Source: Escherichia coli
GTDB taxonomy: Bacteria > Pseudomonadota > Gammaproteobacteria > Enterobacterales > Enterobacteriaceae
DNA: 64,000 nt
NCBI RefSeq assembly: GCF_024502345.1
Contig: NZ_JALDNN010000001.1
Reading direction: 5' to 3' (one strand)
Below the pieces are notes generated by a model, which was given only the letters and a program-made list of their open reading frames with translations, ran no database searches and was not told the origin of the DNA. The position numbers and the translations under genes were made by a program. Positions 9,354-64,000 of this stretch are shown piece by piece. Numbering within the stretch: position 1 is the first letter of the stretch; each line of letters begins with the position of its first letter.

Positions 9354-10655
<1,302 letters not shown>

Positions 10656-10953: not shown

Positions 10954-11034
10954 TCATTATCCTTATAGAAAAAGAAAACCACCGACATCCCTGAGGATGC
11001 GGTGGCTTTATTGACCTGTACCGCAGTCGTTATA

Positions 11035-12039
11035 TTAACGCGTTGCGGAAGTCGGCGTCTTCATATAGCGGAAGAAATCGCTATCCGGGCTCATGACCAT
11101 CACGTCCTGATTGCCAGAGAAGCTGTTCTCATAAGCACGCAGGCTACGGATGAATGCGTAGAAGTCCGGATCTTTACTGAATGCATCAGCAAACAGTTTG
11201 GCTGCTTCGGCATCGCCTTCACCACGCATGATACGGCCCTGACGCTCAGCTTCTGCCAGCGTTCTGGTCACTTCATAGTCGGCAGTCGCGCGCAGTTTTT
11301 CCGCTTCTTCCTGACCTTGTGAACGGTGACGACGCGCTACCGCTTCACGCTCGGCGCGCATACGGTTGTAGATCGCTTCAGACACTTCGGTCGGCAGGTT
11401 GATCTGCTTGATACGCACATCGACAACTTCAATACCCAGCGCCGCCATACTGTTCGGGTTGATGACCGGAACTTTGCCCTTCGTCTCAGCCGTTACGCGC
11501 TCTGCCGCTTCGGCAATGGCGTTATCTGCCGCCGGGGTAGTAACTTCATCTTCTGTACCCGCAGAACCGGAGTTCAGCGCGTCACGTACTTCGAGGGTCA
11601 GACGACCACGGGAATCAGTGACGATATCTTTCACGTCCAGGCGACCAATTTCAGAACGCAGACGGTCAGAGAACTTACGTTTCAACAGCACTTCCGCTTG
11701 CGAAATGTCGCCACCACCCGTTGCCAGGTAGTAACGGCTGAAATCGCTGATGCGCCATTTGATGTAAGAGTCGACGATCAGGTCTTTCTTCTCTTTGGTC
11801 ACAAAGCGGTCGGCCTGGTTGTCCATGGTCTGAATACGTGCGTCGAGCATTTTCACCGTTTCAATGAACGGTATCTTGAAATGCAGACCCGGCTCATAAA
11901 CCAGAGGTTTGTTGTCATCGTCACGCAGTACCTTACCAAAACGCAGCGTAATACCGCGCTCACCTTCTTTGACGACAAAGACAGACATGTAAAGCACTAC
12001 CAGCACGATGATGATAATCGCGATAACTGACTTACGCAT
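11035..12039 (-). CDS. hflC: FtsH protease modulator HflC
   Basis: 334-aa ORF, SPFH/band-7 type sequence, operon with hflK. Confidence 0.9.
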   Translation of the reverse strand: MRKSVIAIIIIVLVVLYMSVFVVKEGERGITLRFGKVLRDDDNKPLVYEPGLHFKIPFIETVKMLDARIQTMDNQADRFVTKEKKDLIVDSYIKWRISDFSRYYLATGGGDISQAEVLLKRKFSDRLRSEIGRLDVKDIVTDSRGRLTLEVRDALNSGSAGTEDEVTTPAADNAIAEAAERVTAETKGKVPVINPNSMAALGIEVVDVRIKQINLPTEVSEAIYNRMRAEREAVARRHRSQGQEEAEKLRATADYEVTRTLAEAERQGRIMRGEGDAEAAKLFADAFSKDPDFYAFIRSLRAYENSFSGNQDVMVMSPDSDFFRYMKTPTSATR

Positions 12040-12041
12040 CG

Positions 12042-29290: not shown

Positions 29291-29440
29291 TGCATGAAGC
29301 TGCCAAATGATGTCAACGTGGCTCATTTAGCAGCTTAACATCATCTTCAGTTATCACCGGCCCTGGAGAGTATCATCCATACGCATTACTTCCTGACAAC
29401 TCATCGCCGGAGAGACGATGAGTTGCAGGATTTCATATGA

Positions 29441-30943
29441 TCAGTCGAGAGCTAACTCAGGTTTATTCGCCATGCGACTGCAATAGTTCTGGTAAATCGC
29501 CATCGCTAACAGCGAGAAGAAGACAGGGCCGCCAATCATCCACAATGTGCTGTCCCAGTCTCCGGCTTCAACCACAGGCTGAATAATGGTGAAGACGTTC
29601 GCAAATGTCACCACCAGAACGACAACCACCGTCGCAATCATTGCCGACATACGCGTATTGAAAATCACAAACGGTCTGTCGAGATCCTGACGTGCTTTAA
29701 AGAATGGGAAAGCCAGCGCGAGGAACAGGTAAGGAAGCGTCATAGACACGTTCGCCATCAGCGTCAGCTTGTTAAAGAACGCCGATGCGGTACCGCCACC
29801 AAACGAAACCAGCAGGATGAAGACAGTAACCAACCCGCACTGCATCCACATGGCGATAGACGGCATCCCCATCGCATTCAGGCGCGTCATCGGTTCCGGC
29901 CACAACGCTTTCGGCGTTCCCTGGATGATGGCTTTCAGCGGTGAATAGCAAAGCGTAAAGAACGCACCGGTATAAGCGAGGAACATCGAAAGTCCGGTAA
30001 TACGCGCAAACCATACGCCCAGCGACAATGACGCTTCAGGAGACAAATGCAGTGCGTTACCCAGCGTCACCCCGAGGCTCTTCATCAGCACATAGGTAAT
30101 ATTGCCGAGGTTAACGGAACCATTACTTAATACCTGCTGCCAGTTTGTGCTGACGCCCCATAAAAATATTGCCAGCGAATAACCGATTGAAATAACAATA
30201 GCGGCAAAAACAATACCTTTGGCAAAGTTCTTTTCTGGATTTTCCGTTTTATCGACCAGACCACCAACCGCTTCAATTCCGCCATAGGCAAAAATAGCAA
30301 ATACCACAAACGATAGCATTGCCAGACCGGACTGATAACCCGGGTTCGGTGATGCAAGGAAATTAATATCCTGCGCGAAATGCCCACCATTTAATAACAA
30401 AATAGTAATGCTTACTAACAGCAATACTAAATTCAGACACATTACTGCAATACCGCCCACCGCAGTAATGCGGGCAATTTTATTAATCCCCTTTGAAGCA
30501 ACGACGGTGACCAGAATCATCCATGCCACTGCCAGCAGACCAACCACCTGCGTAGGCTCCAGTCCGGCAATACGCCAGTGCTGGGTCATGTCGCTACCAT
30601 AGAGGAATGTTGAGAACGGTACCCAAACTTTCGCGGAGGTGCTCACCATCCAGATGATATAAGAGGAAAACCACATAAACGTACCAATGAAGGCAAAACG
30701 TGGTCCGACACTATTATTCATCCAGGAATAGATACCGCCTTCTTCTTTGCGATAAGCAGCTCCCATTTCAGCCATCATTAAGGCGAATGGAATAAAGAAT
30801 AACAATGCAGAAAATATATAAAAGGGAATCGCACTATAACCCATTAAGTAATAAGCCGATGGGCTATTGGCAAATCCAAATACGGAAGTAAAGATCATCA
30901 ATATGAGTCCTATCAGACTCATCTTTTTTATCGTGTGAGGCAT
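29441..30943 (-). CDS. yjeM: APC-superfamily inner-membrane transporter YjeM
   Basis: ORF 29441..30985; start placed at MPHTIKKMSLIGLILMIF (500 aa); polytopic. Confidence 0.8.
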   Translation of the reverse strand: MPHTIKKMSLIGLILMIFTSVFGFANSPSAYYLMGYSAIPFYIFSALLFFIPFALMMAEMGAAYRKEEGGIYSWMNNSVGPRFAFIGTFMWFSSYIIWMVSTSAKVWVPFSTFLYGSDMTQHWRIAGLEPTQVVGLLAVAWMILVTVVASKGINKIARITAVGGIAVMCLNLVLLLVSITILLLNGGHFAQDINFLASPNPGYQSGLAMLSFVVFAIFAYGGIEAVGGLVDKTENPEKNFAKGIVFAAIVISIGYSLAIFLWGVSTNWQQVLSNGSVNLGNITYVLMKSLGVTLGNALHLSPEASLSLGVWFARITGLSMFLAYTGAFFTLCYSPLKAIIQGTPKALWPEPMTRLNAMGMPSIAMWMQCGLVTVFILLVSFGGGTASAFFNKLTLMANVSMTLPYLFLALAFPFFKARQDLDRPFVIFNTRMSAMIATVVVVLVVTFANVFTIIQPVVEAGDWDSTLWMIGGPVFFSLLAMAIYQNYCSRMANKPELALD

Positions 30944-39123: not shown

Positions 39124-40152
39124 ATGGCGCATATTGTAACCCTAAATACCCCATCCAGAGAAGATTGGTTAACGCAACTTGCCGATGTTGTGACCGATCC
39201 TGATGAACTTCTGCGTCTTTTGAATATAGACGCGGACGAAAAACTGTTGGCCGGACGCAACGCCAAAAAGCTGTTTGCCCTGCGTGTGCCCCGCTCATTT
39301 ATCGATCGCATGGAGAAAGGCAATCCGGACGATCCGCTTTTGCGTCAGGTACTTACCTCGCAAGATGAGTTTGCCATCGCGCCCGGATTCTCCACCGACC
39401 CGCTGGAAGAACAGCACAGCGTAGTGCCTGGTTTGTTGCATAAATACCACAACCGGGCGCTTTTGCTGGTCAAAGGCGGCTGCGCGGTAAATTGCCGTTA
39501 TTGCTTCCGTCGCCACTTCCCTTATGCCGAAAATCAGGGCAACAAGCGTAACTGGCAAACTGCACTTGAGTATGTTGCTGCGCATCCGGAACTGGACGAG
39601 ATGATTTTCTCCGGCGGCGATCCGCTGATGGCGAAAGATCACGAGCTGGACTGGTTGCTCACACAACTGGAAGCCATCCCGCATATCAAACGTCTGCGGA
39701 TTCACAGCCGTCTGCCGATTGTGCTCCCGGCACGCATCACAGATGCGCTGGTTGAACGCTTTTCACATTCTACGCTGCAAATCTTGCTGGTGAATCACAT
39801 CAACCATGCCAATGAGGTAGATGAAACATTCCGGCAGGCGATGGCTAAGTTGCGCCGTGTCGGTGTCACCCTGCTTAACCAGAGCGTTCTGTTACGTGGT
39901 GTGAACGATAACGCACAAACGCTGGCAAACCTGAGTAATGCGTTGTTCGATGCCGGCGTGATGCCGTATTACCTGCATGTGCTCGATAAAGTACAGGGCG
40001 CGGCGCATTTTATGGTGAGTGATGACGAAGCACGGCAGATTATGCGTGAGTTGCTGACACTGGTGTCGGGATATCTGGTGCCGAAACTGGCGCGAGAAAT
40101 TGGCGGCGAACCCAGCAAAACGCCGCTGGATCTCCAGCTACGCCAGCAGTAA
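39124..40152 (+). CDS. epmB: EF-P beta-lysylation protein EpmB (lysine 2,3-aminomutase-like radical SAM)
   Basis: 342-aa ORF with radical-SAM CxxxCxxC (CAVNCRYCFR); divergent from efp. Confidence 0.9.
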   Translation: MAHIVTLNTPSREDWLTQLADVVTDPDELLRLLNIDADEKLLAGRNAKKLFALRVPRSFIDRMEKGNPDDPLLRQVLTSQDEFAIAPGFSTDPLEEQHSVVPGLLHKYHNRALLLVKGGCAVNCRYCFRRHFPYAENQGNKRNWQTALEYVAAHPELDEMIFSGGDPLMAKDHELDWLLTQLEAIPHIKRLRIHSRLPIVLPARITDALVERFSHSTLQILLVNHINHANEVDETFRQAMAKLRRVGVTLLNQSVLLRGVNDNAQTLANLSNALFDAGVMPYYLHVLDKVQGAAHFMVSDDEARQIMRELLTLVSGYLVPKLAREIGGEPSKTPLDLQLRQQ

Positions 40153-40184
40153 CTGATTAAACAGGGAAGTCAAACATTAAAATT

Positions 40185-40293
<109 letters not shown>

Positions 40294-40546
40294 TACGCAA
40301 GTACAGCAACCTGTCATTAAACTGGGAAATTTAATCTTTGCCCGTTGCATAACCTTTAATTATTCATATACATTGCTGTTGTTACTCTTTATATAGCTAA
40401 CACCAATAATTAACCTTTCTTTTCTGTTTATATAGAGTGAGCACGGCTACTTATGTTATTTTAACAACTATTATTACCAAGCCCATTCATCTGGCTTATA
40501 AATTAAAATTAATTATTTAATTGAGAAATGGTTAGGGAGAACCTAC

Positions 40547-41416
40547 ATGGCCATAAGCATCAAGGGTGTTAATACCGGTGTTATTCGCAAGAGTAATAAT
40601 TTCATTGCACTGGCGCTGAAAATTAAGGAACCTCGCAATAAAGAATCGTTGTTCTTTATGTCTGTCATGGAACTGCGCGACCTGCTGATTGCGCTGGAAA
40701 GTCGTCTGCATCAAAAGCATAAACTGGATGCTGCTGCACGCCTTCAGTATGAGCAAGCTCGCGATAAAGTCATTAAGAAAATGGCAGAAAATATCCCAGA
40801 AATTCTGGTTGATGAGCTTAAAAATGCCGATATTAATCGTCGGGTTAACACGCTGGAACTTACCGATAATCAAGGCGAAAATCTTACCTTCGTATTAACG
40901 CTACATGACGGTAGCAAATGTGAGTTAGTCGTCAATGAGTTGCAGATTGAAATGCTGGCGCGAGCAATCATTCATGCAATTAATAATGCAGAAATGCGCG
41001 AACTGGCATTACGTATTACCTCACTGTTAGATTTCCTGCCGTTATACGACGTTGACTGCCAGGAAAATGGCAATCTGGAATATGACACCTATTCCCAACC
41101 GGAATGGAAACATAACTTGTTCGACCATTATCTGGCGGTGCTTTACCGCTTTAAAGATGAAAGTGGCAAAGAACAATTTAGCGGCGCAGTGGTGAAAACG
41201 CGTGAAGCAACGCCGGGTAAAGAAATAGAGGCGATCACTCGCCGAATGCTTGATTTCAGCCCACGACTGAAAAAACTCGCGGGTGTGCCATGTCAGGTCT
41301 ATGTTCGCACCGTAGCGGCGAATAACGCCCAACCGCTAACCCAGGATCAATGCTTACGCGCGCTGCATCACTTACGTGTTCAATCCACCAGCAAAACTGC
41401 ACCACAGGCGAAATAA
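40547..41416 (+). CDS. yjeJ: Conserved protein YjeJ
   Basis: 289-aa ORF; AT-rich upstream region; synteny. Confidence 0.75.
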   Translation: MAISIKGVNTGVIRKSNNFIALALKIKEPRNKESLFFMSVMELRDLLIALESRLHQKHKLDAAARLQYEQARDKVIKKMAENIPEILVDELKNADINRRVNTLELTDNQGENLTFVLTLHDGSKCELVVNELQIEMLARAIIHAINNAEMRELALRITSLLDFLPLYDVDCQENGNLEYDTYSQPEWKHNLFDHYLAVLYRFKDESGKEQFSGAVVKTREATPGKEIEAITRRMLDFSPRLKKLAGVPCQVYVRTVAANNAQPLTQDQCLRALHHLRVQSTSKTAPQAK

Positions 41417-41485
41417 TCTCATCTTTGCTAATGCGAGGCTGGAGCCATCCAGCCTGAAATGACTGATAACGTGATCGTTGGTCAT

Positions 41486-51462: not shown

Positions 51463-52038
51463 GTGCAACGTGAAGATGTACTGGGAGAAGCCCTGAAATT
51501 ATTAGAATTACAAGGGATTGCCAACACCACGCTGGAGATGGTTGCTGAACGTGTGGATTATCCACTGGACGAGCTGCGCCGCTTCTGGCCAGACAAAGAG
51601 GCAATCCTCTACGATGCGCTGCGTTATCTTAGCCAACAGATAGATGTCTGGCGTCGTCAGCTGATGCTGGACGAAACGCAAACCGCCGAACAAAAGCTGC
51701 TGGCACGTTATCAGGCGTTATCGGAGTGCGTTAAAAACAACCGCTATCCGGGCTGTCTATTTATCGCTGCCTGTACGTTTTATCCCGATCCTGGCCACCC
51801 TATTCATCAACTGGCCGATCAGCAAAAAAGCGCGGCCTACGATTTCACCCACGAACTGTTAACCACGCTGGAAGTTGACGATCCGGCGATGGTAGCAAAG
51901 CAGATGGAACTGGTGCTGGAAGGATGCCTGAGCCGGATGCTGGTGAATCGTAGCCAGGCGGATGTCGACACTGCACATCGGCTGGCGGAAGATATCCTGC
52001 GCTTCGCCCGCTGCCGCCAGGGTGGCGCATTGACCTGA
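51463..52038 (+). CDS. yjdC: TetR-family transcriptional regulator YjdC
   Basis: ORF 51439..52038; canonical 191-aa product from the GTG at 51463 ([30 protein letters not shown]). Confidence 0.8.
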
Positions 52039-52144
52039 CAGAAACACAGAAAAGAAGCGATTTGCCGCAATCTTAAGCAGTTGAATCGCTTTTACTGAAA
52101 TTAGGTTGACGAGATGTGCAGATTACGGTTTAATGCGCCCCGTT

Positions 52145-52220
52145 GCCCGGATAGCTCAGTCGGTAGAGCAGGGGATTGAAAATCCCCGTGTCCTTGGTTC
52201 GATTCCGAGTCCGGGCACCA
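52145..52220 (+). tRNA. pheU: tRNA-Phe (GAA)
   Basis: GCCCGGATAGCTCAGTCGGTAGAGCAGGGGATTGAAAATCCCCGTGTCCTTGGTTCGATTCCGAGTCCGGGCACCA, 76 nt with GAA anticodon. Confidence 0.95.
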
Positions 52221-53071
52221 ATATTCATAAGGCCTCGCTGCAAAGCGGGGCTTTTTCCTTTTCTGGCTACGGTAGATTTCTGGTCGTTGCGGCACGTTAT
52301 TTGTTTGCTGGATTTCTCGCCATTTTCGCAGTTGTTCGTTACTTTTAGACACCTCAACATCCTTTGATGTACCTTTTCCTAACCTCACAGCTACGGTCTT
52401 TCTACGGTCCTCTACGATTCCTTTCTCTCAGAGCATTCATAATAAAGTAGAAAATACGGGGAAAACGGGGGAATTATCATTTCGCCCTAATCCGCAGGTC
52501 TTAACGTGATTTTGTCGCGGGGAATAAGGTGGGGAAATCCCCAATAGCAAGCGGGGAAATCTGGCAGCATACCCCCTCCACCATTCACATGGGGATCTTC
52601 ACCAGTCCGTCCACCTACAACAAGCTCTTCTTGCCCTTTCACTTCTTACCGTTTTCAGAATCCCCCGTTCTCCACGCCATCATAAAATGATTTATCCGTA
52701 AGCTTAACGTAATGGACTGTTGAACCTGAGTGTCCGCTGTGAGCGAAAAGCGGAACTTCTCACATAGGTAATGAAGCGTTTCCTAACGTCAGGGTGTACT
52801 AATCAACGAAGAGCAGGTCAGAGGACTCGAACCGCTTTCCTCTTCCATCTACGTAGAATTCCAAGAATTTATGTGCTTTCCAGTTACAATTTAGCCATGC
52901 TAAGTTAGAAAAAGCATTGAGTACCTTAGGATTGTATCGATGATACTCTAAGGATCTTGGAGGCTTGTGAGGCGTAAGGTTCAAAGCCAATAGTTTATTA
53001 ATAGTCACACAAGTGGCTCTATTTTTCGCCTACAAACCTATATTTTTCATACAAATAAAAGAAGTGTATTT

Positions 53072-54490
53072 ATGAATACTCAGCAAATTAAGGTTGGCAG
53101 TGTACCTGAAATTATTGAGCTATTACCAAACTCTAGCGAGCAGGCTGATTCTCATCCTTTCATCCTATCGGCAAACAGTGCATGGGGTGAACAGGGAGCA
53201 GAAATATCAATAGAGAGATTACGCCAAAATATCGAGCCTTGGCTAACAGCTCTCTTCCAATCCGAACATTTAAATTTATTGATAGGTGCGGGTTTAAGCA
53301 CGTCTATTCAAATATCGGCTACAGATTCACCTCCAGCTGGAATGGGTTGGATCAGCGATCTAGCCGTATGTAAAAGTGAAATAGATGCATTTTCTACTCT
53401 GGCTGCCAAAGCTGCAGGTCGCGATAACGGAAATATAGAAGATCAAATTAGAGCTATTAATGAACTTATTAAAGGGCTTGAAATTCTGACAGTGTTGAAT
53501 ACCCCTCAACCTGAAAATCCTCCAGCTCCTCATGCTGCTTATAGAAATCTAAAAACGGATTTAGAAATACTCAAGGGAGAGCTTTCTCGCTGCCTAGGTG
53601 AGTTTTCAAGATCTGTGAGTGCCGGAGAATACTTGATTAAAACTGCTGAACCAAAGCGTAAAGAGGAAACTTTCAACTATCTAGTTAGTTTCTTGATGAG
53701 CTTTGCAAGTAGGACCGCTACTCGCGATAGGTTGCATATTTTTACAACAAACTATGATCGCATTATTGAAGTAGGTGCTGAGCTTGCTGGTTTGAGACTT
53801 ATAGATCGCTTTGTAGGAAGTATCGCTCCAGTGTTTCGATCTTCAAGATTGGAGGTTGATTATCACTATAATCCTCCAGGAATTCGTGGCGAACCAAGAT
53901 ATTTAGAAGGCGTAGCGCGTTTTACTAAGCTTCATGGATCCCTTGATTGGCATGAACAAAATAGCGCGATTAGGCGCTTTGGTTTACCTTTTGGAGCACG
54001 TTCTGTTGAACCTTTTTTAGAAGCTGAAGGCCATCAAAGCAACAGCTTTGAACAACTTATGATTTACCCTAACTCAGTAAAAGATAGAGAAACTGCCGAG
54101 TACCCTTATGTTGAGCTATTTCGAGATCTAGCCGCAGCAACTAGCCGCCCAAATAGCACATTAGTCACCTATGGCTATAGCTTTGGTGATGAGCATATCA
54201 ACAGGGTAATTGAAGACATGCTTACAGTGCCTTCGACTCATGTAGTCATAATTGCCTTCGGAGATCCGCTTGGAAGAATCATAAATTTCATTAATAAGAG
54301 TGGAAGAAAAGCACAGATCACCCTATTAATGGGAGACCATTTAGGAGACCTCAAGACTTTAGTTGATAACTATTTACCTAAACCAGCTATTGATAAAGCA
54401 TCAATAAAAATGACTGAATTGCTTAAGCAAAGAGGATTTATCCAGCCCAAAGAATTAGGTAATTCAACTGGCTCCGAGGTATCACAATGA
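53072..54490 (+). CDS. SIR2-like NAD-binding protein (candidate NADase effector of a SIR2-HerA defence pair)
   Basis: 472-aa ORF with Rossmann GAGxS (LLIGAGLSTS), a sirtuin TQNID-like motif (FTTNYDRIIE) and a catalytic-His motif (FTKLHGSLDWHE); AT-rich. Confidence 0.7.
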   Translation: MNTQQIKVGSVPEIIELLPNSSEQADSHPFILSANSAWGEQGAEISIERLRQNIEPWLTALFQSEHLNLLIGAGLSTSIQISATDSPPAGMGWISDLAVCKSEIDAFSTLAAKAAGRDNGNIEDQIRAINELIKGLEILTVLNTPQPENPPAPHAAYRNLKTDLEILKGELSRCLGEFSRSVSAGEYLIKTAEPKRKEETFNYLVSFLMSFASRTATRDRLHIFTTNYDRIIEVGAELAGLRLIDRFVGSIAPVFRSSRLEVDYHYNPPGIRGEPRYLEGVARFTKLHGSLDWHEQNSAIRRFGLPFGARSVEPFLEAEGHQSNSFEQLMIYPNSVKDRETAEYPYVELFRDLAAATSRPNSTLVTYGYSFGDEHINRVIEDMLTVPSTHVVIIAFGDPLGRIINFINKSGRKAQITLLMGDHLGDLKTLVDNYLPKPAIDKASIKMTELLKQRGFIQPKELGNSTGSEVSQ

Positions 54491-56520
54491 GTTACTTACC
54501 AATAGAAAGATTAGAACAATTAAGAATTGGATCTGTTGGATTTGTATCACCTAATGAAATTAGAGTTTCTTTAGAGATTGACTCCCCTGATTCAGTGTCA
54601 CTTCAAGGCGGTTCCCCCCGCAATTTTCCTCGAATAAATAGTTATGTACTGATCAGTAGCGATGATGGATTTCTCGTCGGACAGGTTGAATGGATTGCCG
54701 TAGAACACTCTCCATACCCCAAAAGAAGAGGCTTACAAGATTTTGGCTTGATAGATCTTCCTTTTCCACTTAAAAAGCTCAGTATCAATCCCGTTGGTAC
54801 TTTGAGAGTCGATAGAAAAAACGAAGATTACAAGTTCACAAGAGGAACAGATGCTTTTCCCTCGGTTGGTGACTCCGTGCTCCTGCCTACTGACCGGCAA
54901 TTAAAATCAATAATAGAATCAGGTGACAATAGAAGAGTAAAAATAGGGGACAGCCCCCTAGCTAACAATGCGGAAATAAAAGTGGACCCTGATAGGCTTT
55001 TTGGACGACATTTAGCTGTTTTGGGCAATACAGGTAGTGGTAAATCATGCTCGGTTGCGGGGTTAATTCAATGGTCTTTAGATGCTGTTTTACAACAGGG
55101 ACAGATTCCAAATGCTCGGTTCATAATACTTGATCCAAATGGAGAATACAGTAGGGCATTCGGCCCAGAATCAAAATACAAGGGTAAGCTATTACGTGTA
55201 GAAGCTAACACTGGTGCTGAAGAGATAGATCTTAAAGTTCCGTCATGGTTATGGAATAGCTCTGAGTGGGGTGCTTTCACTCAAGCGAGTTCAAAAGTTC
55301 AACTTCCTTTACTACGCCGAGCTTTGAGGGCGATGAGAAATGATGTTTTATCAGAAGATGATGTGACAATCCAAGCGAAACACTTCTGCGGTATCCTACT
55401 CGTATCCATACGACAATTATCAAGCCAAGGCCAGATATATGTGAATGGCGGCCATGCCAAAGGTTTCGTTGATAGTTTAACGTCTTGGAATAATAGCCTG
55501 TCCACATTAAACGACAAAATCGATAACAAACCTTTCGATAATCTAATAAACACGATGAATGTGTATCTTTCCTCTCGTATAGGAATAAAATGGCCTGAAA
55601 AACCTGAAGTTTCAGATACTGATCAGTTGATTAATGAATTAAAAAATGCATATGAAACGCTTGGAGGTGATGAACAAGGACTTCTTCCAAAAAGTGAAGA
55701 TTCGCCTATTCGTTTTAAAGGGGATGATTTTGTCGCATACCTAGAAGCTCTAGCTCAAGAGACAGGCACAGAGCAATTCGTTGAATTCCTTTTGACTCGT
55801 ATTCGAACAATGCTAGGTGACACCCGTATAAGTGCAGTAACAAATGATTCGGAACAGCCTATCAGTTTAACTAATTGGTTAGACACTTTTCTCGGTAGAG
55901 ATGGACAAGGTTCCATAACTGTTATCGATTTATCGCTAGTCCCTAATGAAATAATACATTTGGTAACTGCTGTAATTTCCAGAGTAACTTTTGAAGCATT
56001 ACAACGTTATCGAAGACTTAAGGGGAAACCACTACCAACAGTTATGGTTGCAGAAGAAGCGCATACATTTATTAAACGCTACAAAGAAGATAGTGAGGGT
56101 CAGTCAGTCTCTGACGTATGCTGCAAAGTGTTTGAAAAGATCGCACGTGAAGGCAGGAAATTTGGGTTAGGTCTTGTAGTTTCTTCCCAACGACCCTCAG
56201 AGCTATCTCCGACTGTGTTATCTCAATGTAATACTTTTTTGTTGCACAGGATTAGTAATGATAGAGATCAAGAGCAAGTCCATAGACTTGTTCCCGATAA
56301 CATGAGGGGGTTGTTGAGGGAGTTGCCATCGCTACCATCTCGGCATGCCATTCTACTAGGATGGGCTTCTGAACTTCCGGTTTTAGTTAGAATGAAAGAG
56401 CTTACTGAAAAACAAAGACCACAATCTGACGATCCCGATTTTTGGGATGTGTGGTCTAACACTACAGAAGAGCCTCGCGAAGTTAATTGGCAACCAATAG
56501 CTGATGATTGGCAAAGTTAA
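54487..56520 (+). CDS. HerA/FtsK-like P-loop ATPase (candidate partner of the SIR2-like protein)
   Basis: 677-aa ORF; Walker A LAVLGNTGSGKS, Walker B VMVAEEAHTF, downstream VVSSQRPSEL motif; ATG overlaps the upstream stop (ATGA), consistent with translational coupling. Confidence 0.75.
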   Translation: MSYLPIERLEQLRIGSVGFVSPNEIRVSLEIDSPDSVSLQGGSPRNFPRINSYVLISSDDGFLVGQVEWIAVEHSPYPKRRGLQDFGLIDLPFPLKKLSINPVGTLRVDRKNEDYKFTRGTDAFPSVGDSVLLPTDRQLKSIIESGDNRRVKIGDSPLANNAEIKVDPDRLFGRHLAVLGNTGSGKSCSVAGLIQWSLDAVLQQGQIPNARFIILDPNGEYSRAFGPESKYKGKLLRVEANTGAEEIDLKVPSWLWNSSEWGAFTQASSKVQLPLLRRALRAMRNDVLSEDDVTIQAKHFCGILLVSIRQLSSQGQIYVNGGHAKGFVDSLTSWNNSLSTLNDKIDNKPFDNLINTMNVYLSSRIGIKWPEKPEVSDTDQLINELKNAYETLGGDEQGLLPKSEDSPIRFKGDDFVAYLEALAQETGTEQFVEFLLTRIRTMLGDTRISAVTNDSEQPISLTNWLDTFLGRDGQGSITVIDLSLVPNEIIHLVTAVISRVTFEALQRYRRLKGKPLPTVMVAEEAHTFIKRYKEDSEGQSVSDVCCKVFEKIAREGRKFGLGLVVSSQRPSELSPTVLSQCNTFLLHRISNDRDQEQVHRLVPDNMRGLLRELPSLPSRHAILLGWASELPVLVRMKELTEKQRPQSDDPDFWDVWSNTTEEPREVNWQPIADDWQS

Positions 56521-56941
56521 TTAACTTAACTAATTTTTAGTAGTGTTATAAGTAGTGGCTTATATCTGACATGACAGTTTAGGTTAGTAGTTTCAATCTA
56601 ACAGTAAGTGTCCACGGTGACGTTTTCATACTCAAATCTCCTGAAATGTGGGAGATTTGAGTATGGTTGTCCCTTATGAGCGAGGAGCGGAAGTTCTGCT
56701 TTAAGTGTATCAAACCCTCCAGCAAAGATGTTCTTGAATGTAATGCCATAATTTCCCTAACATTCCAGCACAAATCAATTAACTCTCAGTCCATAGTGTA
56801 TTTTACTTAAATTAAAATCAAATACTCTAGGAATTAAAATAACAAGATCACTTGCGATTATGCTATTTTAAATTAATATTTTTGTTTTTACTGGGGAACC
56901 TTCAAAACACGGAGCCAGATTTCTTCGTAGCTACCCTGTTG

Positions 56942-57766
56942 CTAGGGTTTCAAGTATTCCCCTAAAGGAAAGAAATTTTTTGACAACTTTTGGGATTCAG
57001 CAATTTTAACCAAATAAATATAGAATCCCAACAGAGCACTGTTCTCGCTTTCCCCCCTCGAATAGTGAACATGCCCAGGCACCTTCCGGATGAGGAAACC
57101 ATTATTTTTTACCAAATAATACCCTCTATCTAAAATTGTAATTACATCAGGCATATCATCTAAATCGATATTATTTCCAGTCATGTAATTAAACAGCGAA
57201 TCTCGTAAGGTACTTTCCTCTGGACCTTGGAAGGCTAGTAGTAAGAATGGTGTTTTTCTCAAGGTTGCACACATCCCTGAGATTTCCTCTACTAATTGCA
57301 CTGTATTTTGGGGAATATTTTCTTTCATAAAATAACCATCGTCAATACCGATTGGATTGATTCTTACCAAACCTTTTGACCTAACGCAAGCATCTAAGGT
57401 TGTCTTAAGGTTTGAAGCTCCTTCGGTCATTGAGCCAGTGTTTAATGAAGATTTACATTCAATTAACGCTAAAGCTGAATCGACAGGGACCATACACTGA
57501 TCTTTATCATAACTAAGTTTTAAAGAATGTTTCGAGTATATGATAATATCCATCTGACTTGAGAGATTATCCTTAGAGTCAAAAACCTGTCCTGATGTAA
57601 TATCTAAATTACTAGGGAGATTTGCTTTTAAAAATTCCCTTATTACAATTTCTCTAGCACTTCCTTTGCTACTCCCGTTCGTCGTTATGGATGACAAATT
57701 AAATGCTGAAACCAAAGATGCCGTATGGTTTTTTAAGTGTTTCTGGATTAATTTCATAAAGCTCAT
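56942..57766 (-). CDS. Hypothetical protein, possible PD-(D/E)xK-type nuclease
   Basis: 274-aa AT-rich ORF convergent with the SIR2/HerA operon; contains D...ExK-like residues (QMDIIIY ... ALIECK); start codon uncertain. Confidence 0.4.
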   Translation of the reverse strand: MSFMKLIQKHLKNHTASLVSAFNLSSITTNGSSKGSAREIVIREFLKANLPSNLDITSGQVFDSKDNLSSQMDIIIYSKHSLKLSYDKDQCMVPVDSALALIECKSSLNTGSMTEGASNLKTTLDACVRSKGLVRINPIGIDDGYFMKENIPQNTVQLVEEISGMCATLRKTPFLLLAFQGPEESTLRDSLFNYMTGNNIDLDDMPDVITILDRGYYLVKNNGFLIRKVPGHVHYSRGESENSALLGFYIYLVKIAESQKLSKNFFPLGEYLKP

Positions 57767-58194
57767 TCCATTTTAATTTATCTACATCGCTTAAAGGCAA
57801 ATGATGCCACCGGCTACCAATTAAAAATTATCTCAACCTGAGAGATTTTTCCAGACTCCAAACGAAAATAAAAAACTACTCGTCACGTCCCTCCTGGCAC
57901 ATAGCCGACACCAAAACCAGCAACATATGGACAACGGTCCCTGCCCTGATGGCAGGTAATTGTATCAGACTTAAACACATATTATTTCTGTGAACTCCCC
58001 CCAACGGCAGTCCTTTCCTCTGAAGACCAGAACCAGACCGTAAAGCCTGCTCTTTCTGCATTTCCCGTATTAATTCATACCATGTGGCACCAGCATTCCC
58101 TTCGCCACACCAGAAAATCAATTCCCCAATAAAAAAGTGCCGTGCCGGGGATGGGTCAACCCTGACGTTCTTTACACCAGTCACAGGAGGTTAT

Positions 58195-59379
58195 ATGTCC
58201 ACCCCCAAACGCTTCCGTTTTACTAATCAGCTCATTAAATCCCTGCCCCCTAACACATCCGATGCACGCAGTACCGATGCCGAATACAGCGACACCGAGA
58301 TTTCCGGCCTCAAGTGTCTGGTCAGCAGAAGAGAAGGTCGTAAAAAGTTTTTGCTACGCTACCTTTATCATGGACGAAAACGCGCCATCGCCATTGGTCA
58401 CTGGCCTGAAGTGGACGTCAATCTTGCTCGTCAGATTGCCATAGAACACAAACGTTCCCTTGCCACCGGCACTGACCCTAAGCAGGAGCGTGAAAACAAG
58501 AGAATGGAGCTGACGTTCGATGAACTCTTTAATCAGCATTATCTGCCATGGGCAAAATCCGCTAAACGCAGTTGGGGAAAGGATGTTCAGCGCTACCGCG
58601 ATCATATCCGTCCCGCCATTGGTCAGAGGCTGCTGAGCGATATCACACCAGCGAGCATTCTGCGCCTTCAGCAGACGTTAAGTACTTCCCTGTCAGCAGC
58701 TACCTGTAACCGTGTCATCGTACTCATTAAAGCCGTCTTTACATGGGCCGGAAGGCAAAGCATGACCTCTGTCCATCCGGCAAGGGTGGTACAGCTTCTC
58801 AGGGAGAACAACGCCCGACAGCGCTATTTCACCGAGGACGAAATTCGTCGTATTTTTCTCTCCGCCGATAACGATACCAGCCCCGTCGCGGCCCGCTATG
58901 TCAAACTGTTGTTACTGACCGGCCTTCGTCGTGATGAGCTGCGTCTGGCTAAGTGGGAGCATGTTGACCCGGTTAAACGCACCCTGTGGCTCCCGGAAAC
59001 CAAGAATGGCTATGGGCGGATTGTTCACCTTAACTCACTGGCGATGGACGTAATCAGAACGCTGCCAACGCAGCGGGGAAATCCGTGGTTGTTTATCGGT
59101 AAAAAACAAGGAATGCCGCTGAATAACCCCGTTAAAGCCTTTCAGCGTATCGTTCGTCGGGCGGGAATTTTCGACCAGGAAGTGTGTATTCATACCTGCC
59201 GCCATTCGGTTGCCGCCCTCATCGTGTCCTACGGCGGAACACTGTATGACGTTCAGGCTCAACTGGGGCACCGCAGCAGTCAGTCTTCACAACGTTATGC
59301 GCATCTTCACCCTCAGCGCTTACAAAACACCAGTCAGTTACTGGCGGAAAGGATAACGGCTCAGCTACCGTCCTTGTGA
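58195..59379 (+). CDS. Tyrosine recombinase / phage-type (P4-like) integrase
   Basis: ATG at 58195 preceded by AGGAGG; 394 aa; C-terminal catalytic R..HxxR..Y signature (HTCRHSVAALIVSYGG ... LGHRSSQSSQRYAHL). Confidence 0.85.
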   Translation: MSTPKRFRFTNQLIKSLPPNTSDARSTDAEYSDTEISGLKCLVSRREGRKKFLLRYLYHGRKRAIAIGHWPEVDVNLARQIAIEHKRSLATGTDPKQERENKRMELTFDELFNQHYLPWAKSAKRSWGKDVQRYRDHIRPAIGQRLLSDITPASILRLQQTLSTSLSAATCNRVIVLIKAVFTWAGRQSMTSVHPARVVQLLRENNARQRYFTEDEIRRIFLSADNDTSPVAARYVKLLLLTGLRRDELRLAKWEHVDPVKRTLWLPETKNGYGRIVHLNSLAMDVIRTLPTQRGNPWLFIGKKQGMPLNNPVKAFQRIVRRAGIFDQEVCIHTCRHSVAALIVSYGGTLYDVQAQLGHRSSQSSQRYAHLHPQRLQNTSQLLAERITAQLPSL

Positions 59380-59389
59380 TAACAGAAAA

Positions 59390-59418
59390 GCAGAGGCAAG
59401 TGCCCCTGCTTTTTTTTT
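59390..59418 (+). terminator. Rho-independent terminator between convergent genes
   Basis: Hairpin gcagaggcaagtgcccctgc followed by a run of nine T. Confidence 0.6.
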
Positions 59419-59434
59419 ACTGTTCAGCCATCAG

Positions 59435-59791
59435 TCAGAACGGGATGGCCCCATATTCTTCATCCGGCACCCGGTTATCATCAAATCTGTTATAGAGTTC
59501 ACGAGCACACTCGCGCGCGTCTTTAATAGACATACGAGGGAACCTGCCGAGGGGTTCATAATAGCAGGCCCCTTCAAGCGTATAACGAGCCAGGAATTTA
59601 ATCTCACCGTTGGCAATGACGGCCCGGAGCGCAGGCTCGCTGCCATCGAAGATTTCACGAGAAATGCCGTGATAAAGGCACTCCGCCAGTGTGTTAACCA
59701 GAGCGTAATCATTGAATGAGGTTTTTTCTTCATTTTCGCTGCTGATAGCGTGAGGAAAACCGTCATAGTACTGGTCTGATTCAAAAATCAT
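59435..59791 (-). CDS. Hypothetical protein
   Basis: 118-aa ORF downstream of the replication-like gene; no recognisable motif. Confidence 0.35.
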   Translation of the reverse strand: MIFESDQYYDGFPHAISSENEEKTSFNDYALVNTLAECLYHGISREIFDGSEPALRAVIANGEIKFLARYTLEGACYYEPLGRFPRMSIKDARECARELYNRFDDNRVPDEEYGAIPF

Positions 59792-59840
59792 ACATCACCT
59801 TCTATTGGTTGTTATTCAGTCAAAATGGTTTTATTCAGGG

Positions 59841-61769
59841 TTAAAATTCGGTCATCACATTGCATTTCAGAAACGCTTTTTTGACCTGGTAGTAAGACTG
59901 CGCCATCGTCTTCAGCGCTCTTTTTTTATAGTGTCCGGCACTTTCGCCAAGCAGATAACCGGAACGCTCTAACGGTCTGGCCACATCAACGGTCTTAAGT
60001 CCCTTTTCAGAACAGAGCTTTTCAAACACCGATTCATAAATCAGGAAGTCGCCGGTTTTGTAATGGACGAATCCCCACATATCTCCCGGGCATCGGGCAT
60101 GTTCGTCACGCAGGGTGATAAAGTGCCTGCTGCTTTTTGTCACCAGCGTCAGCTGAAGCTCCTCCAGCATGTTACGCACCGGGTTATACTGATTCTGGTT
60201 ATCATCCAGCCAGCGTCGTGCAGCGGACATAACGGATTCAGCCACCGCATCGCTTTCGAAAGGTAAAAGGCCATATTTCAGCGCCTTCTCTCCTGCCAGC
60301 CATACCAGCGCAAATCTTTTCAGTCCGCGCCGCTGAACGCGGGTAATATCACGCCCCTCATCCCTCAGGGCCTCTTCCAGTGCGTTACAGCAATCATCTG
60401 TCTGTTCCTGGAGCCAGGATGAAAACTCTGCGTAGGTGCGAAGACCGCCAGCCGTATTTTTCCCGGATAACAGTTTGCCGATAAATGCAGGCCCGGCATG
60501 ACCATAAGCCTCTGCCAGCCCCGTCTTCAGTGCATCTGCACGGGCACGTGTTTCTGATACCGGTTCATCCGGTTTTTGAGCATCCTCAGGCAACAGTTCC
60601 ATACTGATGGCCCTGTGCTCCTGCCCTCCCTGTAACACGGCTTTCTGTTCAGCCAGCTTTTCGGAGATTGACATCTCACCGGTGGAGAGAATAAACATGC
60701 GCCATTTAAACGGCTCATCTGCCGTCAGGCCACGGTTCAGGCGCTCTTTTGCCGTACCTGACGTAATGTTGTAAAGCAGTGAGGAAAGTTGCTTATGATT
60801 ACTCGCACCCAGTTCATCGACGCAGGCGACCAGACCGGAATAGTCAGCGAGAAGGCGCTCCATCGCGTTAGGCGTGGTATTCCAGCGAATAATATTTACA
60901 TTCCCCCCACTACCCGGCTCGCTGCCATCACCATGGACCGATGCAGCCAGCATCAGGAGAAGCGTTTTACCGGTGGTGGATACGCCGTGAAAATGAAACA
61001 TGCCCACATCCATACCGGCAGGAACCAGAAGCATCGAAGCAAAGGACGCACTCAGTGCAAAGGTCTGCGCCCAGCCATGGACATTTTCCCGGATGAGGTT
61101 AATCCACTCCTCCAGGGCCCCACCTTTGTGCAGTCCGGGACGCACGCGGAATCCCGGCAGTAGATAATCAAACCCGGTCAGAGAGGTCACAACGGGCTCA
61201 TGACCATGTAAAAAGGCCATATCCTCCGAAACGAATCCCATCGCATCTGCCATCAGATAGACAGGCAGCGGTAAACTCCGGCAGCGCTGAAGAAAACGGT
61301 CAAAAAGGGCAAACTGCTGTGGAGAGGAGCCAACACAAAATCCACGATCTGCCAGTTTGCCTACTACCTGAGCACCGCTCTGAACAATATCCTCAAAGCG
61401 TACCAGGGCCTTAACATACTTACCCAGCCCGTTACCGGTCATCAGGCTGATCCCAAGACCGGACTCCTTATCTTTTCCACAAAACAGGGCGACAGGCACA
61501 ACTGGCGTGGTGCAAACCTGCACAGGTTTCTGTCCACCGATGTAGAAAAGGCCATTAGCCGTATTCACATAATGCCGTGGCAGCCCATCACCAATACCGA
61601 GTGAAGCGATATCATCTTCACCGACCTCAGTGTTTTCAGCACGCCTGATAATTGCTTCCGACATTTTGTTGAAATTTTTATCGCGGTCAGCAAAAGCGCG
61701 AATACGCTTAATCCCGGAAACCTTAGGAACATTAGTTGTCACTTTTTTATTCATGTGTATTACCATCAA
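59841..61769 (-). CDS. P-loop NTPase, putative primase/helicase-like replication protein of an integrative element
   Basis: 642-aa ORF with Walker A (HGVSTTGKTLL) and a DE box (VACVDELG); immediately downstream of an integrase; start codon uncertain. Confidence 0.5.
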   Translation of the reverse strand: MMVIHMNKKVTTNVPKVSGIKRIRAFADRDKNFNKMSEAIIRRAENTEVGEDDIASLGIGDGLPRHYVNTANGLFYIGGQKPVQVCTTPVVPVALFCGKDKESGLGISLMTGNGLGKYVKALVRFEDIVQSGAQVVGKLADRGFCVGSSPQQFALFDRFLQRCRSLPLPVYLMADAMGFVSEDMAFLHGHEPVVTSLTGFDYLLPGFRVRPGLHKGGALEEWINLIRENVHGWAQTFALSASFASMLLVPAGMDVGMFHFHGVSTTGKTLLLMLAASVHGDGSEPGSGGNVNIIRWNTTPNAMERLLADYSGLVACVDELGASNHKQLSSLLYNITSGTAKERLNRGLTADEPFKWRMFILSTGEMSISEKLAEQKAVLQGGQEHRAISMELLPEDAQKPDEPVSETRARADALKTGLAEAYGHAGPAFIGKLLSGKNTAGGLRTYAEFSSWLQEQTDDCCNALEEALRDEGRDITRVQRRGLKRFALVWLAGEKALKYGLLPFESDAVAESVMSAARRWLDDNQNQYNPVRNMLEELQLTLVTKSSRHFITLRDEHARCPGDMWGFVHYKTGDFLIYESVFEKLCSEKGLKTVDVARPLERSGYLLGESAGHYKKRALKTMAQSYYQVKKAFLKCNVMTEF

Positions 61770-61838
61770 ATTACGCCACCGTCAGAAAACGGGTGCATCA
61801 GAACCATAGTTAAAAACCATACCGTTGAGTGAAGGTTG

Positions 61839-63251
61839 TTACCCCATCGCCCGGTTAACGACTTCGTGGTAACGCGCCGGGGAAGCGTGCAAGTAAAGCT
61901 CCGTTACTTTGATAGTGCTGTGACCCAATAAGTCTTTGACGGTGTGAATGTCGGCCCCGCTCTCAATGAGCTTTGTCGCAAAGGTATGACGCATCTCATG
62001 GATGGTGAACGGTGGAATACCCGCAGCCTCACAAAGTCGTTTTTGCAGGCGACGCGGCTCAGCAACCGGATTGTCGGTTCCCTTGCCCGGAAATACCCAG
62101 CCTTCATCACCCAGATGCTGACGCTGTTCTGTCAGAAGAACGAAAGCCTTATCACATACCGGTACACGGCGTAGTTTGCCGTTTTTGGTATGGCGAAGGG
62201 TGATAACCTTGCGGCTCCAGTCCACATCTTCAAGACGAAGGTGACGGGTTTCCCCCAGACGCAGCCCCGTCAGGGCAAGGAACATGAGAAGAGCAAGGGC
62301 TTCATGATCGGGTTTACCATTACGCCAGCGCTCACAGACGTCCATCCAGCGCTGAAGCTGGGAGTCATCCATGGCACGGCGATCTGACGTCACTTCAGGC
62401 AGCGCTTTGATATAAAGCGCCGGAGAGCGGCTGATGTATCCCATGCGTATAGCCCAGGTAAACACCGCTTTAATGAGCGCCAGATGGCGGTTGCGGGTGG
62501 CAGGCTTGAGATCGAGATTATGCAGATAGCTCAGAATATCTGCCTCCGTCATACCTGCCAGCTTTTTGTCACCGAGAAGAGGGCGCAGGTATTTACGGAT
62601 CTTAGAAAGGTCGGTGTTAGCTGAACGCTTAACGCCCGTGCTGAGTACGCTTTTCTCATACTCATCCACAAGCTCATTAAACGTCATTTTACTGTGAGTA
62701 AGAAAACGCTCACCGTAAGCCTCAACGGCGGTCTTGAGCTCCTGAATTATTTTAAAGGCATGCTCCCTTGCATCTTTAATTGAAATTTCCGGGTAGCCTC
62801 CTACGGCAACGTAGATATTCTTTCCGCGAATACTTTTGCGGACAATAAATTTAATGCGACCTGATGGATAGAATATTGCCTTAAGTCCGGTTAACTTCTT
62901 ATCGCTGGTCTCGATTGTTTGTGCAGCTTGTACTGCACGGATTTTATATTCATCAAAAAGGGCTTTAGTAAAAACACCTCCAGTATTTTTAGGTGCAACC
63001 CCTGGATATTCTACAACATCAGATACTCCAGAGTCGGAATACCCCTGAGCTTCCACATCTACATTGAAGGAATTTTTATGAGCAGCTGTGATGCTCTTTT
63101 CATCCAGCACTTGCGTTATTTTATTTAAAGGGTAATTAACTTTCATAATATGTACATGGTCCTCTGAAAATTCAGATGATAATGAGTAATTTAATATGTC
63201 GGCCAACAATGGGATAAGCTTATTTATTCGTGGCATCACTTTCAAGCCCAT
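61839..63251 (-). CDS. Tyrosine recombinase / integrase (second copy, distinct sequence)
   Basis: 470-aa ORF; catalytic signature RLGETRHL ... HEMRHTFATKLIESG ... LGHSTIKVTELYLH. Confidence 0.8.
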   Translation of the reverse strand: MGLKVMPRINKLIPLLADILNYSLSSEFSEDHVHIMKVNYPLNKITQVLDEKSITAAHKNSFNVDVEAQGYSDSGVSDVVEYPGVAPKNTGGVFTKALFDEYKIRAVQAAQTIETSDKKLTGLKAIFYPSGRIKFIVRKSIRGKNIYVAVGGYPEISIKDAREHAFKIIQELKTAVEAYGERFLTHSKMTFNELVDEYEKSVLSTGVKRSANTDLSKIRKYLRPLLGDKKLAGMTEADILSYLHNLDLKPATRNRHLALIKAVFTWAIRMGYISRSPALYIKALPEVTSDRRAMDDSQLQRWMDVCERWRNGKPDHEALALLMFLALTGLRLGETRHLRLEDVDWSRKVITLRHTKNGKLRRVPVCDKAFVLLTEQRQHLGDEGWVFPGKGTDNPVAEPRRLQKRLCEAAGIPPFTIHEMRHTFATKLIESGADIHTVKDLLGHSTIKVTELYLHASPARYHEVVNRAMG

Positions 63252-63479
63252 GAAAAATCAGCTCTTACATGCCCATTGACATTTAATACTCAAGTCAGAA
63301 AGACCATGATGATTCATCAGGAGTACTCCTGCTCAGGGAAAAGGGAAAATAGCGTTAAACCCTATAAAAAAATTGTGTTCCGGATGCATCGCCCAAAGTA
63401 AGTCAACTTTTGAGGCCCTGAAGGGCTTTGTTGAATAAATCAGATTTCGGGTAAGTCTCCCCCGTAGCGGGTTGTGTTT

Positions 63480-63884
63480 TCAGGCAATACGCACGCTTTC
63501 AGGCATACCTGCTTTCGTCATTTTGTTCAGCGCTCGTACCAGGGCCATAGCCTCCGCAACCTGACCATCGTAGTCACGCAGCGTCAGTGAACCCCCGAAC
63601 AGCTGTTTTACCCGGTACATCGCCGTTTCCGCTATCGAGCGACGGTTGTAATCTGTTGTCCATTTCCACCGCGCATTACGCTGATTAGCCACTGCACGGT
63701 TACGGTCTGCATATTCACCGGGCCAGTAACCCGCACCTTTTCGGGGAGGGATAAGCGCGCTGATTTTCTTACGCCGCAGTTCATCGTGACAGAGCCGGGT
63801 GTCGTAAGCGCCGTCTGCCGATGCTGCCCTGATTTTTCTGTGAGTCTGCCGGATAAGACCCGGGAAGGCTTCTGAGTCCGTCAC
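63480..63884 (-). mobile_element. IS5-family DDE transposase, C-terminal fragment (truncated or frameshifted)
   Basis: 134-aa ORF with DGAYDT and RSIAETAMYRVKQLFG (IS5-type D..E region); reading frame breaks upstream. Confidence 0.55.
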
Positions 63885-64000
63885 ATTGTTCAGCGACAGG
63901 TCAGCGCAGATGATTTCATGTGTTTTACTGTCAACGGCGAGATGCAGCTTACGCCAGATACGGCGGCGTTCCTGGCCATGCTTTTTGACTTTCCACTCGC

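Follow-up and report, generated by a model that had tools for sequence, protein, structure and literature searches.

A probable integrative island with a variable anti-phage cargo slot at the tRNA-Phe gene pheU of Escherichia coli

The tRNA-Phe genes pheU and pheV are classic island sites in Escherichia coli (PMC11537424), and a large share of the defense repertoire of this species is found on mobile elements at tRNA hotspots (PMC10121019). In addition, replaceable defense hotspots are known in P2 prophages and P4 satellites (PMC9122126). Here, we analyzed 64,000 nucleotides of E. coli DNA (contig NZ_JALDNN010000001.1 of assembly GCF_024502345.1; this whole stretch is called the window), in which a tRNA-Phe(GAA) gene marks the start of a different kind of sequence. 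An earlier reading made from the letters alone (the sequence-only reading) had placed a horizontally acquired island at the 3' end of this gene and had called Phe-tRNA genes classic island sites, which is in line with the published pheU and pheV islands (PMC11537424). Our results indicated that positions 52221 to 64000 are very likely the left part of a horizontally acquired integrative island that belongs to a family with a recognizable backbone and is inserted site-specifically in pheU. The window shows the left 11.8 kb of this island.

The islands GI-pheV and GI-pheU (PMC11537424) share several properties with the island in the window: the same target genes, an attachment (att) core that includes the last 23 bp of the tRNA, a P4-type (arm-domain) integrase, mosaic modular cargo, and tandem accretion with older remnants. 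In GI-pheV, intP4 lies immediately next to the tRNA gene and is the sole conserved gene. In contrast, a left arm of 262 to 540 bp and a slot of 1.1 to 5.5 kb intervened here, and the first integrase gene, int1, started 5975 bp (5.97 kb) past the tRNA, behind the cargo slot; in the minimal island form this distance was about 1650 bp. Beyond the GI-pheV pattern, the conserved core here added a second integrase, a DUF927/Cch-like helicase, and a stand-alone arm-domain protein. The cargo also differed, with defense genes here and virulence genes in GI-pheV.

The island was also compared with elements that use other sites. MGIVchHai6 of Vibrio cholerae (PMC4958241) is similarly small and relaxase-less, has an attL, an int gene, and a convergent operon with a DUF927 gene and a small directionality-type gene, and carries type I restriction-modification (R-M) genes and other defense cargo. 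Unlike the IncC-mobilized MGIVchHai6, which lies at trmE, the island in the window occupied a tRNA-Phe site, had a second integrase in the place of the regulator, and had an arm-domain protein in the place of Xis. SCCmec-type elements of Staphylococcus likewise encode a helicase with DUF927 and a Cch HTH domain beside their recombinases, which suggests replication of the excised circle. However, SCC elements use the serine recombinases CcrAB and the rlmH site, whereas both recombinases here were of the tyrosine type and the site was tRNA-Phe; the match of the helicase to NCBIfam SCCmec Cch1 (2.2e-22, 79 bits) was far below the cutoff of 700 bits. The Gamma-Mobile-Trio, GInt, and recombinase-in-trio layouts were not found, as there were only two recombinase genes, which were nonadjacent, and GmtY matched at E=6e-4, with 19 bits against a cutoff of 340. 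Finally, the locus resembled the P2 and P4 hotspots (PMC9122126) and the defense islands at tRNA hotspots (PMC10121019) in that unrelated defense cassettes interchange at a fixed position of the backbone. It was unlike the P2 and P4 hotspots in its different backbone, in having no phage or satellite structural or hijacking genes, and in the position of the slot between attL and the integrase.

From the tRNA outward, the backbone consisted of a noncoding left arm, the variable slot, int1 in the orientation of the tRNA, and a convergent operon of int2, the DUF927/Cch-like helicase gene, and the arm-domain protein gene (Table 1). Comparisons with related islands showed that this is one coherent family with a conserved backbone and a variable slot, rather than a collection of mixed foreign genes.

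To the left of the island, the genes upstream of the tRNA were dsbD and dicD (yjdC), and because this synteny matches that of K-12, the tRNA-Phe(GAA) gene was assigned as pheU. Window positions 3340 to 52229 aligned colinearly with positions 4362543 to 4411999 of K-12 MG1655 at 98.7 to 98.8% identity, which bore out the claim of the sequence-only reading that everything before the tRNA is syntenic core. When the two junctions were compared side by side, identity to K-12 stopped at the CCA end plus one A, and this alignment mapped the insertion point that the sequence-only reading had left to be located. Past the breakpoint, K-12 has its own terminator hairpin, the yjdQ integrase remnant, and then cadC, and it represents the empty site. 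The cad locus that had been expected beside pheU is present there in K-12; the window had the island in that place. A terminator-like hairpin and T-tract supplied by the island take the place of the native pheU terminator. The tRNA stays intact, as the element brings its own tRNA 3' part and its own terminator. An open reading frame (ORF) on the minus strand at 52101 to 52388 overlapped the tRNA and was treated as spurious. Within the core part, the only gap in colinearity was at about 29291 to 29477, where the window had roughly 190 bp of other sequence compared with about 740 bp, including yjeN and yjeO, in K-12.

The attachment sites were identified in a complete relative. Strain MLI023K1 (record L004) carried the left arm and the recombination/replication module after pheU, and its whole island measured 22.6 kb. 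At the far end of this island, at L004 22841-22889, the 3' part of the tRNA was repeated perfectly over 48 bp, GGGATTGAAAATCCCC...GGGCACCA, and beyond the repeat came a K-12-like flank followed by an integrase remnant and cadC. The two repeats in MLI023K1 are a textbook attL/attR pair. The 48-bp att repeat, GGGATTGAAAATCCCCGTGTCCTTGGTTCGATTCCGAGTCCGGGCACCA, corresponds to the tRNA 3' part in the window and places the crossover somewhere inside 52173 to 52220. No second copy of the tRNA 3' end was found in the window: a 23-mer search allowing up to 3 mismatches gave a single match, and a blastn-short search with a 57-mer query gave only chance 7- to 9-mers within the window. Thus, attR must lie outside the window and there is no internal att site, in agreement with the earlier statement that the far end of the island and attR are not in view. 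The integrase remnant beyond attR in MLI023K1 was compared with int1 and int2 to pick the Phe-specific type, and no usable similarity was found.

The distribution of the island was examined in 5426 complete E. coli genomes. The integrase/DUF927 module (57934-62972) was present in 133 of them, always on the chromosome and with at least 80% coverage in 68 of the 133, and the left arm (52222-52760) was present in 202. The cargo (52483-57933) was near-identical in two, strains cS33a (recorded from Malawi) and fM51a. The same content was therefore far from being present in essentially all E. coli, which is the finding that would have made it core rather than accessory DNA. In other strains the same element was located at pheV, beside yqgA. 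Flanks and slot contents were counted in the 35 best-matching E. coli records, and 17 of these had pheU-side flanks, 16 had pheV-type flanks, and 2 had only the last 23 bp of the tRNA in front of the island. One of these two, strain CRECJHTL34, carried the island in tandem behind a yee/CbtA-type island, with a 23-bp remnant of the att core between the two, and strain AREA_C483 carried a sequence-divergent variant in which the gene order was unchanged.

The family was not restricted to E. coli. In a scan of one genome per species, the DUF927 gene product was 95 to 96% identical at the amino acid level in Enterobacter, Buttiauxella, and Kluyvera. The locus adjoined a tRNA-Phe gene in Enterobacter asburiae, Buttiauxella warmboldiae, and Kluyvera georgiana, where nucleotide identity was 91 to 92% for the left arm and 93 to 94% for the module. 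These loci belong to one mobile element family whose transfer between genera was recent. The opposite idea, that the DNA is ancestral to E. coli and was lost in K-12 and most lineages instead of being acquired, draws on the core-like GC content of the module (50.8%). However, only 2.5 to 3.7% of the complete genomes have this DNA, two different tRNA-Phe loci are occupied, att repeats bound the island in MLI023K1, and nucleotide identity in other genera reaches 91 to 94%. The sporadic frequency, the att repeats in the relative, and the cross-genus identity refute the ancestral origin, and we give it virtually no chance of being correct.

The same scan also gave a match to the DUF927 gene in Mixta tenebrionis BIT-26 (L017, NZ_VHQI01000036.1, positions 1-1643). 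It was a lone contig of 1643 bp with 99.7% nucleotide identity to window 60013-61655, and it was closer to the DUF927 gene of the window than any E. coli record found. This match could be a very recent transfer or assembly contamination.

Table 1. Positions of the tRNA-Phe gene, the island parts, and the island genes in the window
Feature	Position	Strand	Evidence
tRNA-Phe(GAA), pheU, integration target	52145-52220	+	ARAGORN; Rfam tRNA, 68.3 bits; dsbD-dicD synteny as in K-12
attL core, 48 nt of the tRNA 3' part from anticodon loop to CCA	52173-52220	+	Direct repeat at attR of MLI023K1
Noncoding left arm	52221-52760		blastn to relatives; 202/5426 genomes; no Rfam family
Terminator-like hairpin and T-tract, island-supplied	52229-52264 (hairpin 52229-52254)	+	Terminator scan; K-12 hairpin at same place differs
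Variable cargo slot, left arm to int1	52483-57933		39.9% GC; boundaries from alignments to MLI023K1, cS33a, and other genera
SIR2-family NADase-like protein of SIR2-HerA pair	53072-54490	+	PADLOC SIR2 PDLC04079; PDB SIR2
HerA ATPase of SIR2-HerA pair	54487-56520	+	PADLOC HerA PDLC04098; PDB HerA
93-bp scrap, HerA-nuclease intergenic region	56611-56703		Matches 5' edge and upstream region of truncated integrase genes
Stand-alone DUF6602 protein, 274 aa, NucC-like PD-(D/E)xK nuclease fold	56942-57766	-	Pfam, PADLOC, PDB
Conserved recombination/replication module	57934-62972		133/5426 E. coli genomes; 93-94% nucleotide identity in three other genera
int1, P4-type tyrosine integrase with arm-binding N terminus	58195-59379	+	phrog_1 integrase, 1.5e-59; NCBIfam recombinase
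Stand-alone arm-type DNA-binding domain protein, 118 aa	59435-59791	-	Relatives' annotation "Arm DNA-binding domain-containing protein"
DUF927/Cch-like helicase, replication-type	59841-61769	-	Pfam DUF927, 1.2e-33; Cch HTH_56, 5e-4; phrog_8841 primase/helicase
int2, second P4-type tyrosine integrase	61839-63251	-	phrog_1, 1.6e-70; intact catalytic motifs
IS903-like (IS5 family) element, cut by window end	63422-64000	-	NCBIfam IS5 transposase; comparison with IS903B

The conserved module encoded two P4-type tyrosine integrases, which were 31% identical paralogues. In both proteins the catalytic motifs were intact: R (TGLR), K (TKN), HxxR, H (LGH), and Y; in int1, the HxxR motif read HTCRH and the Y lay in RYAH. 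The start of int1 was taken from the RefSeq annotation of relatives. Like P4-type integrases in general, int1 points in the same direction as the tRNA, which makes it the likely enzyme for tRNA-Phe. The ORF of int2 extended to 63251, and relatives (PSJ-22) annotate a 435-aa form that would start at about 63146. The retention of int2 in the divergent AREA_C483 variant, which has the same gene order, argues that int2 is functional rather than a relic. Between the integrase genes, the 118-aa arm-domain protein was 40% identical to the arm domain of int2, and it is a candidate directionality factor by analogy with MGIVchHai6-type islands, in which it would correspond to the xis position. When the DUF927 protein was compared with plasmid and phage collections, the only relatives were less than 30% identical at the amino acid level; thus, no plasmid or phage origin was visible for this protein.

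The gene content named in the sequence-only reading largely stood, as we found two tyrosine recombinases, a DUF927 helicase-like protein, a SIR2-HerA defense operon, and a transposase of the IS5 family. The part that did not hold was the term insertion sequence (IS) fragment, as the IS903-like element is cut by the end of the window. This element and the IS903B of cS33a were 94.4% identical; the element in the window lacked 12 nt in frame and contained a divergent patch, and its transposase frame was open to base 64000. Relatives without the element were continuous across 63422. Relative to the int2 start in the PSJ-22 annotation, the insertion was 276 bp upstream, and it may separate int2 from its promoter.

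The left arm was conserved from 52221 to 52482 in the related islands that were compared, and the part from 52483 to 52760 was found in a subset only. An Rfam scan of 51900 to 64000 detected the tRNA only, with no known RNA in the 850-bp noncoding arm. Five GGGGAAW motifs were located on the plus strand within about 100 bp (52458-52559), compared with 0.22 per kb per strand across the window. This cluster was conserved in AW1.7 and 97.3 and partly in G3/10, but not in MLI023K1, and the motifs may be candidate arm-type integrase sites or iterons. The base composition differed along the island: GC content was 43.1% in 52221-52482, 39.9% in the cargo slot, and 38.8% in 62973-63421, compared with 52.0% in the core. 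The claim that the sequence becomes AT-rich directly after the CCA end was therefore correct for the left arm and the cargo and incorrect for the module, which has the core-like value given above.

The cargo slot of the window held a SIR2-HerA pair and a separate nuclease gene. The SIR2-family protein matched PADLOC PDLC04079 with E=2.7e-154 over profile positions 28 to 419 of 430, and HerA matched PDLC04098 with E=2e-252 over positions 4 to 684 of 686. The two genes were adjacent and co-oriented, the HerA start overlapped the SIR2 stop (ATGA), and HerA contained the Walker A motif GNTGSGKS at residue 180. HerA also matched PDB HerA proteins. In these respects the pair resembled the SIR2-HerA (Nezha) systems, which consist of two overlapping genes for a SIR2 NADase-like protein and a HerA ATPase (PMC11514289, PMC11472057, PMC11559045) and which, when characterized, deplete NAD+ upon infection (PMC11514289, PMC11472057). 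The product of the third gene matched Pfam DUF6602 (1.3e-20), PADLOC PD_DExK and NucC, and PDB NucC (E=9e-7). Homologues of this protein formed only 20 clusters among 5.8 billion proteins, and the best was 91% identical. Other homologues were found in Pseudomonas, Shewanella, and Motilimonas, where they were solitary, in varied contexts, and without a constant neighbor. In cS33a, the nuclease gene was absent and IS903B was in its place. The DUF6602 nuclease gene is a separate piece of cargo and a candidate single-gene defense or toxin.

Other members of the family carried other genes at this position. The most common form of the slot among the 35 best records was 1.1 kb long and contained a single gene for a 195-aa protein (23 of 35). 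This gene was located at 985-1572 of L004, was the same in L008 and L023, encoded 177 aa in PSJ-22, and belonged to phrog_30162. The 195-aa protein had no PADLOC match, and its position in a defense slot makes the gene a candidate defense gene. Relatives also carried an anti-phage dCTP deaminase, LeoA with two partner genes, a restriction endonuclease with or without further genes, or a nucleoid-associated protein with genes of no assigned function. The slot of Enterobacter contained a PtuA-like PDC-M01 pair and a second SIR2-HerA subtype, and that of Buttiauxella contained a membrane EAL-domain protein.

The slot of the strain studied here is also a mosaic. About 750 E. coli genomes matched the slot at the 93-bp scrap only, with 89 to 96% identity, and in CFT073, near 271 kb, the scrap overlapped the start of a 603-bp integrase remnant. 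Recombination between two cargo cassettes probably left this scrap as a scar. Its association with integrase genes bears on a tandem or composite array, in which an integrase-less defense islet (tRNA to about 57.9 kb) integrated separately in front of an older int1-DUF927-int2 element. Such accretion at Phe-tRNA sites was seen in the tandem islands of CRECJHTL34, and K-12 and MLI023K1 both keep an older integrase remnant past attR. However, there was no att-like repeat in 52230-64000 or at the slot edges, the left arm and module co-occurred in E. coli and three other genera and flanked the slot in every case, and the right edge of the slot was ragged rather than a fixed site. The ragged edge and the lack of att repeats fit homologous exchange between related islands better than separate integrations. 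We therefore consider the tandem array quite improbable and a single island with an exchangeable slot the better description.

A SIR2-HerA cassette similar to that of the window was found in a different setting. The cassette at about 53030 to 56572 was 85% identical to one in strain 08_3323 (L024, NZ_CP074914.1, positions 9044-12492), where it was located between ogr and a homologue of tail gene D in a P2-like prophage, next to ihfA. This type of cassette thus circulates between the prophage hotspot and the island slot. The finding indicates cargo that is shared with the phage world, and it agrees with a phage satellite, P4-like or PICI-like and packaged by a helper, in which the integrase and the primase/helicase-type protein form the replication and integration core. 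The same idea accommodates the PHROG matches to integrase and "DNA primase/helicase," the placement of several backbone genes of relatives in function-unassigned PHROG families, and the defense hotspots that P4-like satellites are known to carry (PMC9122126). In contrast, no psu, sid, delta, alpha-type primase, capsid-redirecting, or packaging genes were annotated in the 22.6-kb relative, PHROG scans for hijacking or packaging genes of P4-like satellites or PICIs gave integrase, primase/helicase, and function-unassigned families only, and the closest DUF927 relatives in the phage collection were those below 30% identity. A phage satellite is thus unlikely, although less so than the tandem array.

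We next consider how an island of this kind could move between cells. One explanation is a mobilizable island that rides a conjugative plasmid or an integrative and conjugative element (ICE), either by means of an origin of transfer (oriT) only or by means of a MobI-like factor as in the IncC-mobilized MGIVchHai6 family. The local layout of MGIVchHai6-type islands is alike (int and a convergent xis-DUF927-regulator operon) and includes type I R-M cargo (PMC4958241), a published report describes relaxase-less islands with only an oriT as common in E. coli (bioRxiv 10.64898/2026.01.13.699239), and the cross-genus spread at 91 to 94% nucleotide identity is as expected for such an island. However, the site is tRNA-Phe and not trmE, and a search with up to 2 mismatches found no AcaCD-box-like motif in intergenic DNA; in the window part and the complete relative, a simple consensus from two published sites matched in coding regions only. 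Neither mobI, a relaxase gene, nor type IV secretion genes were annotated in the 22.6-kb relative, and annotation and hidden Markov model scans, the only methods used here, detected no relaxase or type IV secretion genes of an ICE or a relaxase-bearing integrative mobilizable element in the window part either. We regard the mobilizable island as a possibility worth keeping, though a doubtful one.

Relatives were also used to examine the island beyond the end of the window. In MLI023K1, this outer part (L004 7392-21786) was also rich in defense genes and carried a JukA-like (DUF3944/YaaW) gene, WYL-domain regulators, DUF262, type I R-M genes with an extra AAA ATPase, and a "5-fold beta-flower" repeat protein. 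More generally, the backbone of relatives continued past the window with small conserved genes, JukA/WYL-like genes, DUF262, and type I R-M genes up to attR. PADLOC matches among the MLI023K1 backbone genes were limited to the JukA-like and WYL-like genes, both outside the window. In the closest relative, cS33a (L001, NZ_CM176586.1, positions 39918-41420), IS1A truncated the hsdS gene of the island and was directly followed by ghoS. The right end of the island and attR were missing from the cS33a record, as were cadCBA, dtpC, ghoT, and the gene for lysyl-tRNA ligase, so that the cad locus was lost in association with an IS.

The results are consistent with the following mechanism for the pheU island. 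Site-specific recombination inside the final 48 nt of the tRNA gene very likely brought the element into pheU, and Int1 could plausibly catalyze both its integration at tRNA-Phe and its excision. The small arm-domain protein may bias the direction of this reaction, a role with about an even chance, because it stands at the xis position of MGIVchHai6-type islands, where a DUF927 gene is in the same operon. The Cch-like helicase might, on balanced expectation, replicate the excised circle, as has been proposed for SCC elements. Related islands may swap cargo through homologous recombination in their conserved flanks, which we hold neither probable nor improbable, and the SIR2-HerA pair could equally act as an NAD+-depleting abortive-infection system like the characterized members. 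Transfer between cells by way of a helper, either a conjugative element or a phage, is about as plausible as these steps, and a helper would be needed because no transfer genes were seen.

Several points weigh against reading 52221 to 64000 as one functional island of this family. Excision, circle replication, and transfer are predictions. The right two-thirds of the island and attR are outside the window, and in cS33a the right end has been deleted by IS1 together with the cad locus. The module has a core-like GC content, and composition alone would not flag it as foreign. The Phe-tRNA integrase was named from its position and orientation, and int2 is without an assigned role. The slot is variable rather than hypervariable, as 23 of the 35 best copies share the 1.1-kb content. 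In addition, the SIR2-HerA pair was unlike the characterized systems: SIR2 matched the SIR2 proteins of solved SIR2-HerA complexes over residues 195 to 411 only (E=2.5e-21), and the NCBIfam equivalog cutoffs were missed, with 123.6 bits against 500 for SIR2_antiphage and 229.5 bits against 850 for HerA_antiphage. The unmet cutoffs indicate that the subtype differs from the curated ones; the pair appears to be a distinct, distant subtype, and its function is predicted.

A further, tentative idea concerns the family as a whole. It may be an undescribed replicative integrative family of Enterobacterales, defined by a conserved set of four genes (two paralogous P4-type integrases in convergent units, a Cch-like DUF927 helicase, and a stand-alone arm-domain directionality factor) and specialized in carrying anti-phage cassettes that are kept in an att-proximal slot and swapped with the P2/P4 hotspots; we think this combination more doubtful than probable. 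No published description of this backbone was found in a search that left out most subscription journals, and this result is weak evidence of novelty.

The island does not overturn the current understanding of Phe-tRNA genes as integration sites; it adds to a well-known kind of element at these genes. It marks where the core chromosome ends and a mobile, defense-carrying element starts, and it accounts for the cad locus not being seen beside pheU in the window. The solitary DUF6602 nuclease and the 195-aa slot gene are reasonable leads for new defense functions, and the paired integrases with a free arm-domain protein could inform on the control of excision. For E. coli and related genera, the backbone serves as a small carrier (about 22 kb in the complete relative) that occurs across genera and brings varied anti-phage systems to two tRNA-Phe sites.

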